From IMG/VR virus record IMGVR_UViG_3300027759_000048: DNA of 64,000 nucleotides, one strand, 5' to 3'. Positions within the stretch are counted from its first letter, which is position 1. Every line of letters begins with the position of its first letter. Of the stretch, positions 9,079 to 29,414 are shown one piece after another. Source of the DNA: a virus. Under the pieces are notes generated by a model. That model was not told the origin of the DNA. It saw only the letters and a list, made by a program, of their open reading frames with translations, and did not search any database. The position numbers and the translations under genes are program-made.

Positions 9079-9402
9079 ATGATCAAAATTAAACGCAAAT
9101 CCCGCTCTGACCGTAAACATCTGATTTACTCGTTGTCTGTAAACAACAAAGAGTATATCGGAGTGACGTTTGTAGACAAAGGCCGCATTAATGCGTCCTT
9201 AACTCGCCGCTGGAATAAGCATGTCAACCGTGCCTTGAATGAAGACAAAGGCTGGAAGCTATGCACCGCTATCCGTAAACACGGTGCCGACTCGTTTACA
9301 GTTAGTGTCTTAGAGGTCGTCCGTGGCAAGTCTGCGGCCCATATAAGAGAGAGGGAACTAATCCGTGACCGTAAGCCCAAACTCAACACCGACGTCCGCT
9401 AA
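9079..9402 (+). CDS. Short GIY-YIG family protein
   Basis: LIYSL....EYIGVT, RRWNKH, AIRKHG...F, ERELI, LN. Confidence 0.75.
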   Translation: MIKIKRKSRSDRKHLIYSLSVNNKEYIGVTFVDKGRINASLTRRWNKHVNRALNEDKGWKLCTAIRKHGADSFTVSVLEVVRGKSAAHIRERELIRDRKPKLNTDVR

Positions 9403-10738: not shown

Positions 10739-10813
10739 GTTCCGTGGGTCGGATGCTAAGGCGCAGGACTGCAAATCCTTGAGAACTCGGTTGAACTCCG
10801 GGACGGAACTCCA
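10739..10813 (+). tRNA. tRNA-Cys(GCA), atypical core
   Basis: Acceptor GTTCCGT/ACGGAAC, discriminator T, encoded CCA; anticodon loop CT-GCA-AA; T-loop TTGAACT. Confidence 0.85.
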
Positions 10814-10814
10814 T

Positions 10815-10891
10815 GGTCTGGTAGTTTAGTTGGTGAAAACATCGCCCTGTCACGGCGAAGACCACGGGTTCGAGTCCCGTCCAGATCGCCA
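10815..10891 (+). tRNA. tRNA-Asp(GTC)
   Basis: Cloverleaf; TCGCC-CTGTCAC-GGCGA; GGTTCGAGTCC; G73 + CCA. Confidence 0.95.
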
Positions 10892-10895
10892 ATTT

Positions 10896-10970
10896 GGTCC
10901 CATCGTCTAATGGTTAGGACAACGGCCTTTCACGCCGTCAATGCCGGTTCGAGTCCGACTGGGATCACCA
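10896..10970 (+). tRNA. tRNA-Glu(TTC)
   Basis: Cloverleaf; ACGGC-CTTTCAC-GCCGT; GGTTCGAGTCC; CCA. Confidence 0.93.
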
Positions 10971-10974
10971 ATAT

Positions 10975-11048
10975 GCGGAGGAAGTGTTACGGTAGCACGA
11001 TAGGCTTCCACCCTGTAAGCGTGGGTTCGACTCCCATCCTCCGCTCCA
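10975..11048 (+). tRNA. tRNA-Gly(TCC)
   Basis: GCGGAGG/CCTCCGC, U73 + CCA; ATAGG-CTTCCAC-CCTGT. Confidence 0.93.
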
Positions 11049-19721: not shown

Positions 19722-21230
19722 ATGACAAAGATAATCACAAGAGATTGGATCCGAGATGACATTGTGATCCATGCTGATGTCAGAAAAGCAGATGTTTTGG
19801 TTAACACATATACTAAACAAGACCTCTGCGAGTTTATCAATTACTGGAAACTCAAACTTCTATCGCATGGTGCTAAACGTGGTGATAAGATTGGCACATG
19901 TATCATGCCATCTGACATTCATTCAACTGCTATCAAGTTTGCTGCCTTTGAACTTGGTATGAGTATGGTCGTTCTACACAGACCAAACAACGAGAAAGAA
20001 TGCCAGAGTCCTAAGAGCAATTGTCATTTGCCTCTAGACTTTATGATCTTCTTTACATCTTATCTGGCTAGTCCTATTCTTTCTACTGCTATGAAACATT
20101 ACCAAAAGAACTCCAAGGTTGTTTTGGGTTATGGTCCAATTGAATGGGAGACACAGAGAAAGAAGTTTAGATCAACTGAAGAAACACCAATACTAGCACA
20201 GCCAGGTGATATTGCTCTATTGTGTAATAGTAGCGGCACAACTGGCACTCCGAAACTAATAGCACACTCGCACGAATACCTGTATAATCTCTCTAGTAAT
20301 AACGGGCAAGAACTGGGCTATGAACCAGATGACCATTATCTTCATTTGTCCTCACTTAATCACGGAGCGACATTATCACTTGTTCTACCGTCTTTTAGAA
20401 TATGTAAGAACCACTATTTCTATAACAGCATTTCTGGTAAAGGTAAGTTGCCTGGTGACCAGCAATATGATGAGTATGAAAGATTTGTCAATGATTGTGT
20501 CAAGCATGGTATAACAAGAATATTCTGTACCCATGGCGGTGTGCTAGATGAAATCATTAATCATATGGCTAATCGTGATATCAAACTGCCTAACACAAGT
20601 GTAATGATACTTTCATTCATCAGTCCTGAATGGTGTAAGGCAATCAAAGAAGGCAGTCTGAAAAGTATCTATAGTCCATTTGGTTGTAGTGAGGTATGTG
20701 GTCCAGTGTTTATGATGTGGCTCAACTCTGATAATGTGGATAACTTTAATCCAAAGTATCTCGGCAAGCCAACTGTTGATAGTTTCTATAAGACTAGAAT
20801 AGCTGATGGACGTATCTACACAGCCACGCCATACACAGATGAGATTTGTTTTGATGATATTGTTGATGAGAAGCCAGATGGCTATTACTTTGTCGGTAAG
20901 AATAGATTACAAAAGATAAACGATATTGATATCAATCCACTGGACATCATTGAGATAGTGGAGAAGTATACCACAAGATATCAGTTTGAGATATACATTG
21001 ATGAGGTATATAATCAGTTGTATGTTCTTACCTCTGATGTTGTAGCATATGAACAAAGAAGCCATATCAAGGAAGAGATAGACACATTCTATCATGGAAA
21101 TGTTACTCTTGCCGATGTTATACTTGAGCCAGAACTATATGATGCCACTATCAGCAACAAAGCAGATAAGGACAAGTTAGCTGGTATGGTTGAACGATTC
21201 CGCTTGACAAACAAAAATAATGCTGTATAA
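19722..21230 (+). CDS. AMP-binding (ANL superfamily) adenylating enzyme, acyl-CoA ligase-like
   Basis: A3 NSSGTTGTPK, A5-like PFGCSE, A7-like FDD, A8-like FVGK...INPLDI, A10-like TISNKAD. Confidence 0.8.
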   Translation: MTKIITRDWIRDDIVIHADVRKADVLVNTYTKQDLCEFINYWKLKLLSHGAKRGDKIGTCIMPSDIHSTAIKFAAFELGMSMVVLHRPNNEKECQSPKSNCHLPLDFMIFFTSYLASPILSTAMKHYQKNSKVVLGYGPIEWETQRKKFRSTEETPILAQPGDIALLCNSSGTTGTPKLIAHSHEYLYNLSSNNGQELGYEPDDHYLHLSSLNHGATLSLVLPSFRICKNHYFYNSISGKGKLPGDQQYDEYERFVNDCVKHGITRIFCTHGGVLDEIINHMANRDIKLPNTSVMILSFISPEWCKAIKEGSLKSIYSPFGCSEVCGPVFMMWLNSDNVDNFNPKYLGKPTVDSFYKTRIADGRIYTATPYTDEICFDDIVDEKPDGYYFVGKNRLQKINDIDINPLDIIEIVEKYTTRYQFEIYIDEVYNQLYVLTSDVVAYEQRSHIKEEIDTFYHGNVTLADVILEPELYDATISNKADKDKLAGMVERFRLTNKNNAV

Positions 21231-21236
21231 TAAATA
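21204..21236 (+). promoter_or_regulatory. tmRNA promoter: TTGACA-N16-TATAAT overlapped by a late-type TAAATA
   Basis: TTGACA 21204, TATAAT 21226, ATAAATA immediately after. Confidence 0.7.
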
Positions 21237-21237
21237 C

Positions 21238-21530
21238 TATGCTGAGGTCGTTGAGAGGAACGGCATAGACGTTACGGACGGCGGTTCGATTCCGCCCGCC
21301 TCCACCATAGTAACATCGGACACGGTTCAATTCCGTAATAAGTCCTATAATAGTCTTTAGGCACCCGATGTTACTATGATGGGGGCGACCAGGGTTTCGA
21401 CGGGCGTAGTAAGGGTTCAAGGAGACCGAAAGCAAACGTTAGGTGCTAACGATAACTTTGCATCATTTGATCTTGCTCTAGCAGCATAATCATTGGGTGG
21501 GCCACCAGCCTAGAAACAGAAGTGGTGGCA
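21238..21530 (+). ncRNA. ssrA: Circularly permuted (two-piece) tmRNA, alphaproteobacterial type; tag ANDNFASFDLALAA
   Basis: T-arm GGCGG-TTCGATT-CCGCC and CGCCTCC-A-CCA (to 21307) come before the 5' strand GGGGGCG (21381), giving a G3.U70 pair; tag frame 21445-21489; terminal hairpin GCCACCA/TGGTGGC. Confidence 0.93.
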
Positions 21531-21552
21531 ATTTTACATTATGAGGAACAAA

Positions 21553-21777
21553 ATGAACGCCGACGATATGCAAAAGTTTAGTCTAGCCATTGAGGAGCTA
21601 GTCTATATGAAAGACATTCCATACATTGACGCTGTTATTATGTATTGTGAGGAGACTGGCTTTGAGCTAGAGACGGCTGCCAAGCTAATCTCTGGTGTTC
21701 TCAAATCAAAGATCAAGCTAGAAGCTGAAGACCTACACTATCTAAAGAGATCAAACACCGCACAACTACCTTTCTAA
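21553..21777 (+). CDS. 33: Late transcription coactivator gp33
   Basis: FSLAIEELV...YIDAVIMYCEE...LISGVLKSKIKLEA..LHYL; synteny 33-59-32. Confidence 0.85.
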   Translation: MNADDMQKFSLAIEELVYMKDIPYIDAVIMYCEETGFELETAAKLISGVLKSKIKLEAEDLHYLKRSNTAQLPF

Positions 21778-22370
21778 TGAAACACTTTTCAGGTTATGGT
21801 GCTTACTTGCTATTCTTAGCATTGAAGACCCATTTCACTAAGTCAGGCTATGACTTCTTCCAAATGCATGGTAAACTCCGTGCAACTAAGGAGTCCTATC
21901 AAAAAAGGAATGATAAGTTCTTCTTTGAGAAGCTGGCTAAAGAGTATAACGCTACCGAGTTGCGTGATTTCTATATTGCTAATCTACTTGAAGAGAAACA
22001 ATACATAACGGATCTAATAGATGAAACAGCAAAGCGAACATACACTGATTATCTGCGACGGCGACAGAGTTTGTCGTATAACTATACCAATGACTTGGCT
22101 AGAACTTTTAGAAAGGGCTTTCGAGAGCCGTTCATTGTCAGTGATAATGCCTACCCTAGTATTGTATTGCTTTTCTTGCGTCGGGAAATCAGTCTAGAAA
22201 CGATGGTCATTGTTGATGACTTTCTGGGCTACACTGGCAAGTTTGATAAGTATTATGGCGAAGATATCATTTGGTGTAAGGTGTCTAAAAAGATAAGTAA
22301 GTATAGACCGTTTCTACAGTATGATAAGGCGAAGATGAAAAGCATACTTAAAAACGAGATGACTAAATAG
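21777..22370 (+). CDS. 59: Helicase loader gp59
   Basis: LALKTHFT..YDFF...GK, KRNDKFFFEKL, ISLET, KYRPFL. Confidence 0.88.
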   Translation: MKHFSGYGAYLLFLALKTHFTKSGYDFFQMHGKLRATKESYQKRNDKFFFEKLAKEYNATELRDFYIANLLEEKQYITDLIDETAKRTYTDYLRRRQSLSYNYTNDLARTFRKGFREPFIVSDNAYPSIVLLFLRREISLETMVIVDDFLGYTGKFDKYYGEDIIWCKVSKKISKYRPFLQYDKAKMKSILKNEMTK

Positions 22371-22670: not shown

Positions 22671-23600
22671 ATGAACTTTGCTAACCTCAAGAAACAATCT
22701 AAAGACTTCAGTGGCCTTCTCAAGAAGGTTGATGAACTCAACAAACCCACCTATGATAGAGACGCATCTACAGATAACTATTGGAAGCCAACGCCTGATA
22801 AGGCTGGTAATGCTCTAGCAGTTATTCGTTTCCTTCCTGGCTCTGCCGTTGATGGTGACGATGCTCTACCATGGATTCAGTATTGGGATCATGGGTTCCA
22901 GAACAAGTTGAGCGGTAAGTGGTATATTGAAAAGTCACTCACCACTATTGGTCAGAAAGATCCTGTTTCTGAATATAACTCTACACTATGGAATGCTTCG
23001 GCTGATGATAACTCACCAGAACGCAAGCAGGCCCGTGATCAAAAGCGCCGCCTTCATTATGTGTCAAACATTCAGGTTATTAGTGATCCTAAGAACCCAT
23101 CAAATGAAGGTAAAATCTTTCTATTCAAGTATGGTAAGAAAATCTTTGATAAGCTAACAAAGATGATGAACCCAGACCTTGAGTCGGAGAAGGCAGTTAA
23201 TCCTTTCGATCTTTGGCAGGGTGCTAACTTTAAGTTGAAGATGACCCGTCAGTCTGGTTTTCCAAACTATGATGAGTCAACATTCCTTGCACCAGGTCCG
23301 CTATCAGAAGATGAGGCAGAACTTGAAAAGATTTGGAAGGCTGAGTATTCTCTCAAAGAGATTATCGATCCAAAGAACTTTAAGTCTTATGATCAGCTAA
23401 AGGCTCGTCTCAATGATGTTCTTGGCTTTGGTGATAGTGCTCCACGTGCTACAGCTAAACCAGTAGTAACAGAAGATGATGATGTTCCTTTTACCGAGTC
23501 AAAGCCTGTTGCTAAGAAGGCAGCACCTAAGGCTCCAGTTGTAGAAGATGATGATGAAGACTTGGCTATGTTCCGAGAACTAGCCGATCTTGATGACTAA
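22671..23600 (+). CDS. 32: Single-stranded DNA-binding protein gp32
   Basis: AVIRFLP, WYIEKSLTTIGQKDPV, KYGKKIFDK, NPFDLWQGANFKLK, acidic tail. Confidence 0.96.
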   Translation: MNFANLKKQSKDFSGLLKKVDELNKPTYDRDASTDNYWKPTPDKAGNALAVIRFLPGSAVDGDDALPWIQYWDHGFQNKLSGKWYIEKSLTTIGQKDPVSEYNSTLWNASADDNSPERKQARDQKRRLHYVSNIQVISDPKNPSNEGKIFLFKYGKKIFDKLTKMMNPDLESEKAVNPFDLWQGANFKLKMTRQSGFPNYDESTFLAPGPLSEDEAELEKIWKAEYSLKEIIDPKNFKSYDQLKARLNDVLGFGDSAPRATAKPVVTEDDDVPFTESKPVAKKAAPKAPVVEDDDEDLAMFRELADLDD

Positions 23601-28958: not shown

Positions 28959-29414
28959 ATGGCATATGATTATAAGCAGGGATTTTTCAAGCCGAGATTC
29001 CCTAAGAAGTATATTGGCGATCCAACTAATATAGTATATCGTTCTGGTTGGGAAAAACGTGTGATGCAGTCTCTAGATGAAAACACTACGATTGTCCGCT
29101 GGGCCAGCGAAGAAATAATCATACCTTACTATTCTCCGATAGACTGTAAATATCATAGGTATTACCCAGATTTCTATGTAGAAGCAAGAGCACCTGACGG
29201 CTCGGTTAAGAAGATGCTATTAGAAGTAAAGCCAGCCGCACAGACGCAGCCACCAAAGTCACCGAAGAGAAAGACTAAGCGGTATATTACTGAGGTTATG
29301 ACTTACGGCGTCAATGAAGCAAAGTGGAAAGCAGCGAGAGAGTTTTGTATCGATAAGGGCTGGGAGTTTCATATTATAACGGAAGCAGACTTATTTAAAA
29401 AACCAACTAAATAA
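28959..29414 (+). CDS. 4: Head completion nuclease gp4
   Basis: PKKYIGDPTNIVYRSGWE, WASEE..IPY.SP, HRYYPDF, EVKP, NEAKWKAA. Confidence 0.92.
   Translation: MAYDYKQGFFKPRFPKKYIGDPTNIVYRSGWEKRVMQSLDENTTIVRWASEEIIIPYYSPIDCKYHRYYPDFYVEARAPDGSVKKMLLEVKPAAQTQPPKSPKRKTKRYITEVMTYGVNEAKWKAAREFCIDKGWEFHIITEADLFKKPTK

Follow-up and report, generated by a model that had tools for sequence, protein, structure and literature searches.

Transfer-messenger RNA (tmRNA) is the RNA by which stalled ribosomes are freed. Here we examine a candidate tmRNA gene (ssrA) in a 64,000-nucleotide stretch of viral DNA, the IMG/VR record IMGVR_UViG_3300027759_000048, which as a whole is called the window below; judged from its sequence, the window belongs to an uncultured T4-like myophage that very probably carries a functional ssrA of the circularly permuted (two-piece) type, at the locus where phage Melnitz and related aquatic myophages have theirs. 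Phage genes of this kind have precedents. Indeed, a survey of 18,146 phage genomes yielded 53 two-piece tmRNAs, of which 50 came from marine or aquatic samples, and of 47 Melnitz-like contigs 17 had a permuted tmRNA (Buchholz et al. 2022, PMC9004378), while a tmRNA database of 2025 holds 79 unique phage sequences (PMC11915505). The earlier note on this DNA, which was written from the sequence alone, had implied that the gene was a novelty; two-piece tmRNAs directly upstream of the late-transcription coactivator in aquatic T4-like myophages were, however, already published (PMC9004378).

The closest described system is that of Methylophilales phage Melnitz EXVC044M (MZ577097), a T4-like aquatic myophage as is the phage of the window. 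Its ssrA is likewise permuted and alpha-type, scoring 113.4 bits with the Rfam model RF04321 and 106.7 bits with RF01849, and its genes run in the order of the window, namely PhoH, PD-(D/E)XK nuclease, ssrA, the coactivator gp33, the helicase loader gp59 and the single-stranded DNA-binding protein gp32. Upstream of the Melnitz gene stand TTGACA and TATAAATA, boxes like those in the window, and the Melnitz tag, ANDNYVPVDYALAA, has 14 residues with an ANDN start and an ALAA end, which is the form of the tag in the window. Given this agreement in locus order, permutation, boxes and tag form, the gene in the window is the positional and structural counterpart of the published phage gene, although the two sequences are too diverged for blastn. 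They differ also in several details: the spacer between the two pieces is 73 nucleotides in the window and 142 in Melnitz; the linker from P2, the set of helices that joins the pieces, to the tag is 17 nucleotides and has no PK1 helix in the window, whereas Melnitz partly keeps that helix; and the T-loop is the canonical TTCGATT in the window but GGCAGTA in Melnitz. Melnitz has, furthermore, a glutamine riboswitch (RF01739, 52.8 bits) at the 3' end of ssrA, and none was found in the window at the gathering threshold; such a riboswitch at this position is common but not defining (PMC9004378).

In terms of architecture, the second relevant system is the two-piece tmRNA of alphaproteobacteria (RF01849; the Caulobacter paradigm of Keiler, Shapiro and Williams 2000, as cited in PMC9004378), which shares with the window the order of acceptor piece, spacer and coding piece, the encoded CCA, the G3.U70 pair, a tag of the ANDNFA...AA type and a 3'-terminal structure. 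The copy in the window differs from it in being phage-borne, in having no SmpB gene nearby, in its reduced pseudoknot region and in a tRNA-like domain of the canonical one-piece style, while its phage relatives have the alpha style. One-piece tmRNAs are also known from phages (mycobacteriophages of cluster C1 such as Bxz1, and Bacillus phage G; PMC4131195). These are encoded by phages that have no SmpB of their own, and they presumably rely on the trans-translation machinery of the host, as would the RNA of the window, but they are standard, non-permuted genes in other phage families with other hosts.

The gene was recognized in the window by two covariance models. RF04321 (tmRNA_permuted) matched at 21246-21489 with 96.3 bits (E 2e-17; gathering threshold 47), and RF01849 (alpha_tmRNA), the model by which the earlier note had suggested checking its prediction, matched at 21200-21532 with 55.6 bits, above the threshold of 50. 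ARAGORN, suggested for the same purpose, missed the gene at its default settings; with the option -ps (95% threshold), it called a tmRNA of permuted form in which the domains were the same and the tag was ANDNFASFDLALAA followed by a stop. The gene had been described as invisible to annotation, which is right for ARAGORN at default but not for Rfam, whose newer permuted model detects it easily; spurious open reading frames (ORFs), moreover, overlap the gene. The parts of the gene are as follows.

21204..21236, plus strand: composite promoter, with a -35 box TTGACA at 21204-21209, a 16-nucleotide spacer and a -10 box TATAAT at 21226-21231 (its use as a promoter is putative)
21245..21307, plus strand: acceptor piece, 63 nucleotides, with the 3'-side strands of P2, the T-arm, the acceptor 3' strand and the encoded CCA (from Rfam alignment, piece extraction and covariation; 5' end approximate)
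21246-21249 (GGTC), 21258-21261 (GAAC) and 21269-21276, plus strand: 3'-side strands of P2
21280-21296, plus strand: T-arm GGCGG/TTCGATT/CCGCC, with 5 pairs and a 7-nucleotide T-loop
21297-21303, plus strand: acceptor 3' strand CGCCTCC
21304, plus strand: discriminator A73
21305-21307, plus strand: encoded CCA
21308..21380, plus strand: intervening segment (spacer), 73 nucleotides without an ORF (from sequence and precursor fold)
21381..21529, plus strand: coding piece (from Rfam alignment, ARAGORN -ps and alignment of relatives)
21381-21387, plus strand: acceptor 5' strand GGGGGCG, followed by a D-loop analogue with TTTCGAC
21401-21407, 21415-21418 (GTTC) and 21424-21427 (GACC), plus strand: 5'-side strands of P2, followed by the 17-nucleotide linker to the tag frame
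21445..21489, plus strand: tag reading frame, with resume codon GCT at 21445, peptide ANDNFASFDLALAA and stop TAA at 21487-21489 (from ARAGORN -ps)
21494..21529, plus strand: 3'-terminal structure, a hairpin of GCCACCA (21501-21507) with TGGTGGC (21523-21529), then AATTTT

The order of the parts is permuted, i.e., the 3' half lies upstream of the 5' half, with the CCA end at 21307 preceding G1 at 21381 across the spacer. The T-arm, the CGCCTCC-A-CCA string ending at 21307, the GGGGGCG at 21381 and the tag frame at 21445-21489 all read in the sequence as the earlier note had given them, and its other coordinates agree as well. The two halves form an acceptor stem of seven pairs in which G21383.T21301 is the alanine identity pair G3.U70, as had been claimed, and the GGAC and TTTCGAC elements of the tRNA-like domain align to the model consensus. 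Three long-range P2 helices join the pieces: GGTC/GACC (21246-21249 with 21424-21427), GAAC/GTTC (21258-21261 with 21415-21418) and 21269-21276 with 21401-21407. Of the cross-piece helices proposed before, GGTC/GACC is thus supported; the neighbouring TTGA/TCAA helix was rejected, as it overlaps the second P2 helix and is unconserved and without covariation in relatives, where GAAC/GTTC covaries instead. When the pieces were cofolded by minimum free energy, the acceptor stem and T-arm came out correctly in relatives, as did the terminal hairpin in the window, but P2 and the T-arm of the window were mis-paired, and comparative pairs were therefore used in its place. The terminal structure might also include an H-type pseudoknot, in which TGGG(T) at 21494-21498 would pair with (G)CCTA at 21508-21512. 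A local hairpin (CGTTAG/CTAACG) surrounds the resume codon in the window and is not kept in relatives of the L011 type (related loci are given L numbers where they need to be told apart).

Conservation among related viruses bears directly on whether this RNA is under selection. A 20-mer spanning the resume codon was present in 19 viral contigs of IMG/VR, 18 of which gave a permuted tmRNA above the Rfam cut-off; the remaining contig, L020, starts at the 20-mer, so that the gene is cut off. The closest relative by gp59 that has upstream sequence (L002, 90%) also has a permuted tmRNA. Pairs were counted by script in 16 distinct phage tmRNAs, including that of Melnitz, on anchored acceptor piece, spacer and coding piece, because MAFFT had set one gap wrongly where the coding piece begins. 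No non-standard pair occurs in any of the 16, either among the seven of the acceptor stem or among the five of the T-arm; changes on both sides are seen at acceptor pairs 4, 5 and 6 and at T-arm pairs 1, 2, 3 and 5, and G3.U70 and A73 are invariant. The second P2 helix covaries (GAAC/GTTC in the window, ACGA/TCGT in L011 and TAGC/GCTA in L014), as does the P2 helix adjoining the T-arm (L018 versus L010), and the arms of the terminal hairpin do so in the alignment (CCACCA/TGGTGG, GCCGGA/TCCGGC, GCCGCA/TGCGGC and others). Also, the same or a near-identical tag was found in 18 related loci, following the pattern ANDNFA[S/P][F/L][D/G/E][L/F/Y/I]ALAA; its ends, ANDNFA and ALAA, are invariant despite synonymous changes (GAT/GAC and GCA/GCC/GCG). 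Since the pairs, the tag ends and the promoter boxes described below are all kept in relatives, the gene is an RNA and a tag template under selection rather than a chance resemblance or a decaying fragment. With two covariance models, relaxed ARAGORN and this covariation in agreement, the central claim of the earlier note, namely a phage-borne, circularly permuted tmRNA of alphaproteobacterial style with a complete tag frame, is borne out.

Several points weigh against reading the gene as a working tmRNA of this class. While relatives score 105-125 bits with the alpha_tmRNA model, the window barely exceeds the cut-off; this low score is attributable to its tRNA-like domain, which is of the canonical one-piece style and not the alpha style of the relatives. 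The P2a helix has a bulge or mismatch (NC marks in the Rfam alignment). The window has a deletion in place of the four-pair helix, part of PK1, that the RF04321 model has between P2 and the tag; 17 nucleotides are left between P2 and the resume codon, and the tmRNA is therefore atypical and compact. Furthermore, neither the 20-mer of the resume region nor a degenerate pattern coding for ANDNFAxxxxALAA followed by TAA was present in bacterial species-representative genomes when these were scanned for exact patterns, although such scans would overlook host tags that are similar but differ in codons, length or stop. Recognition of the tag by host adaptors is therefore an assumption.

Transcription of the gene can be considered from the sequence upstream, where TTGACA and TATAAT at 21204-21231, 16 nucleotides apart, match the consensus at 12 of 12 positions (consensus scan) and a T4-late-type box, AATAAATA at 21229-21236, overlaps the -10 box; the sigma70 promoter with an overlapping late-type box that had been noticed before is indeed there. 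Among 21 distinct related loci, ATAAATA lies 14-17 nucleotides upstream of the acceptor piece in 20, and a -35 box of the form TTGACA or TTGCCA occurs in 11, Melnitz included. This conservation of both boxes lends support to the idea of a dual early and late promoter. A consensus scan found no strong plus-strand terminator after the terminal hairpin, and gp33 starts about 20 nucleotides after it, so that read-through into gp33-gp59 is likely; read-through from ssrA into downstream genes was proposed for Melnitz as well (PMC9004378).

On these grounds, the following course of events can be proposed. The composite early (sigma70-type) and late (ATAAATA) promoter would drive a single precursor, which would probably read on into gp33-gp59 and in which the 73-nucleotide spacer would fold as a hairpin, its closing stem of 12-13 bp stacking on the acceptor stem. 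By analogy with the bacterial two-piece tmRNA, the spacer would then be excised, with host RNase P cutting before G21381 and host 3' processing trimming to the encoded CCA at 21307; processing into two pieces by RNase P and 3' trimming is established for the bacterial RNA, to judge from Keiler et al. 2000 as cited in PMC9004378. The product would be a 63-nucleotide acceptor piece and a coding piece of about 150 nucleotides, held together by the acceptor stem and the three P2 helices. Since the identity elements and the tag are conserved, we infer that host alanyl-tRNA synthetase (AlaRS) would charge this RNA via G3.U70 and A73, that with host SmpB and EF-Tu it would enter ribosomes stalled on broken mRNAs and add ANDNFASFDLALAA, and that this tag would mark the peptides for ClpXP-type proteolysis by the host. 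The likely benefit to the phage would be that ribosome rescue continues after the host chromosome has been shut down or destroyed by the phage, when host transcription has stopped and mRNA breakage is high. The further suggestions that the RNA is supplied throughout infection, that it counters RNA-cleaving defences and that it retunes proteolysis are speculation.

The use of host SmpB in this scheme deserves a comment. A Pfam scan for SmpB (PF01668) gave no match among 40 scanned ORFs of the window, in keeping with what had been noted there, and none in five related viral records, one of which is 158.8 kb long and rated 96% complete; all the while, 10 bacterial control genomes gave matches. 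With SmpB absent from both sets, the phage tmRNA, if it works, must use the SmpB of the host.

It is conceivable, though improbable in our judgement, that the RNA serves mainly to manipulate the host, either by competing with the host tmRNA for SmpB or by a phage-specific tag that re-routes stalled products, which would allow faster recycling of amino acids or escape from a host adaptor. The tag form ANDNFAxxxxALAA-TAA and the 20-mer, present in 19 viral contigs and in no bacterial species representative, would fit such a role, as would the message-like domain, which is 98-100% identical despite flanks of about 50% and so suggests selection specific to a phage lineage. The literature offers parallels, too: a molecule of mycobacteriophage DS6A consisting of the tRNA domain only, and the inhibitory effect of a similar molecule, have been discussed (PMC4131195, PMC11915505), and selective tagging of host proteins was raised as an option (PMC9004378). 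The tag nonetheless begins with ANDN and finishes with the generic ALAA, as proteobacterial tags ordinarily do; the conservation of the alanine identity elements, and of the tRNA-like domain as a whole, is that of a working tmRNA, and the bacterial scans are subject to the exact-pattern limit given above. The view that the gene is only a passenger, be it a bacterial ssrA acquired of late or a copy in decay, or that the region instead codes for protein (a 94-codon minus-strand ORF at 21151-21435, or a 37-codon plus-strand frame from the ATG at 21375), is highly implausible. In its favour are the ORFs that overlap the region, the lack of an ARAGORN call at default settings and a tRNA-like domain unlike that of the nearest relative. 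Against it, many phages, divergent as they are, keep the gene at one locus, where its pairs change in a compensatory manner and its promoter boxes are conserved; an ORF on the minus strand would run through a spacer that is unalignable among relatives; there is no integrase context; the gene is complete and not an attachment-site fragment; and the resume region occurs in no bacterial representative.

With a working tmRNA of the phage as the preferred reading, the gene adds a rather compact example to the published class of two-piece tmRNAs in aquatic T4-like myophages. The comparative set reveals strong selection on the tRNA-like structure and the tag ends, a message domain that hardly differs between otherwise very divergent phages and a tRNA-like domain exchanged as a block, and these results could guide work on why lytic phages bring a ribosome-rescue RNA of their own yet rely on host SmpB.

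The block-wise exchange, the only lead beyond the published picture, is evident when the window is compared with its nearest relative, L002. Identity between the two is 87-92% in the flanks, 100% over the first 25 nucleotides of the acceptor piece and 98% over the stretch that starts at P2, includes the tag and extends to the terminal hairpin, but the block at 21270-21407, which comprises the P2a strand, T-arm, acceptor, spacer and 5' half, is only 58-71% identical. In L002 and most relatives, the tRNA-like domain is of alpha style with the T-loop GGCGGTA and the 5' strand GGGGCAG, in contrast to the canonical domain of the window with TTCGATT and GGGGGCG, and L009 has a spacer and 5' half as in the window (95-100%) and a T-arm that is different again. 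Set against L006, too, the domain and spacer behave as a block that can be exchanged. The message-like domain, on the other hand, retains 98-100% identity even where the flanks of two phages have only about 50%. A 32-nucleotide string of the window that covers T-arm and acceptor was also found in a second lineage of phage permuted tmRNAs (L025-L031), in one phage one-piece tmRNA and in about 60 metagenome contigs, mostly with bacterial one-piece tmRNAs (tags such as ANDERYALAA and ANDDNYALAA), and the 5' halves of those bacterial tmRNAs resemble that of the window. As this string is a common canonical form in bacterial one-piece tmRNAs, it does not identify the donor, and an origin of the domain in the L025-L031 lineage, considered as a candidate, was weakened by the same fact. 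From the sequences compared, it may be that the permuted order makes the tRNA-like domain and spacer (21270-21407) a single swappable cassette that was exchanged in this phage, the cassette acting as a host-matching module tuned to host SmpB, AlaRS and RNase P and the tag domain remaining constant within the phage lineage; we regard this as a tentative and rather doubtful proposal. If true, the type of cassette would predict the host.

The spacer has features of its own. In the window its closing stem has 12 bp (21308-21319 with 21365-21376), or 13 bp counting A21307-T21377, and extends the acceptor stem; inside is a T-arm-like hairpin, ACGG/TTCAATT/CCGT at 21322-21336 with CGGAC before it, and the spacer ends in TGAT before G1. 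The spacers of the relatives, which range from 26 to 242 nucleotides and are unalignable in sequence, all have complementary arms at start and end and a terminal GAT. At 21317-21336 the CGGAC and hairpin resemble the real T-arm region 45 nucleotides upstream, the two agreeing at 12 of 16 positions beyond the CGGAC that they have in common. This T-arm-like element is identical in L009 and near-identical in L006, though the real T-arms there are alpha-style, and L021 retains the hairpin without the T-loop motif. The element might be left over from a previous tRNA-like domain, or it might serve as a signal in processing. Longer spacers are found in L015 and L019 (242 nucleotides), L012 (185), L025-L031 (102-111) and Melnitz (L024, 142), and small ORFs in the spacers of relatives start just past CCA, behind Shine-Dalgarno-like motifs; for example, L015/L019 have one of 68 codons, L012 has a frame of 77 and L025 encodes a membrane-like peptide of 27 codons, while the spacer of the window has none. 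Followed upstream, the tag frame of the window stays open up to ATGATG at 21375-21380, directly before G1, which gives a 37-codon ORF ending in the tag. Because no ribosome-binding site is evident, this ORF is probably an artefact that gene callers could pick up.

As to the surroundings, the phage context that had been read from the sequence agrees with PHROGs and Pfam, by which T4-type gp33, gp59, gp32, baseplate and tail-tube proteins were identified in the window. Directly downstream of the tmRNA gene are the following genes.

21541..21777, plus strand: late-transcription coactivator of gp33 type (phrog_254, 3e-22)
21777-22370, plus strand: helicase loader gp59 (phrog_269, 3e-53)
22671-23600, plus strand: gp32 (phrog_224, 3e-100)

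The ORF of gp33 is listed from the ATG at 21541, and its likely start is the ATG at 21553, behind GAGGA at 21544-21548 and about 24 nucleotides past the terminal hairpin. Upstream of the tmRNA gene are PhoH, a virion protein, a PD-(D/E)XK exonuclease and an AMP-binding enzyme. The last of these, an adenylate-forming enzyme of 502 residues (19722-21230; PF00501, 5e-17) whose ORF reaches into the tmRNA promoter and stops there, is uncommon as cargo in this position, where Melnitz has small hypothetical genes. The gp32 is less than 50% identical to those of all phages in the reference collection, with cyanomyophages as the best matches. The tmRNA gene had no blastn match among 50,697 phage records, and megablast of the 15 kb around it against the same records gave only a 52-bp match, in gp32; the phage is not in that collection.

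Elsewhere in the window, a tRNA cluster at 10739-11048 holds genes for Asp, Glu and Gly tRNAs called by both ARAGORN and Rfam, together with a fourth, weak tRNA-like match at 10739-10810 (35 bits) by Rfam only. Free-standing nuclease genes were also found, namely a SegE-type GIY-YIG gene at 2408-2803 (2e-34), a second GIY-YIG domain protein at 9079-9402 and, among the baseplate and tail genes, a TnsA-like endonuclease at 28959-29414; the three are likely to be mobile elements.

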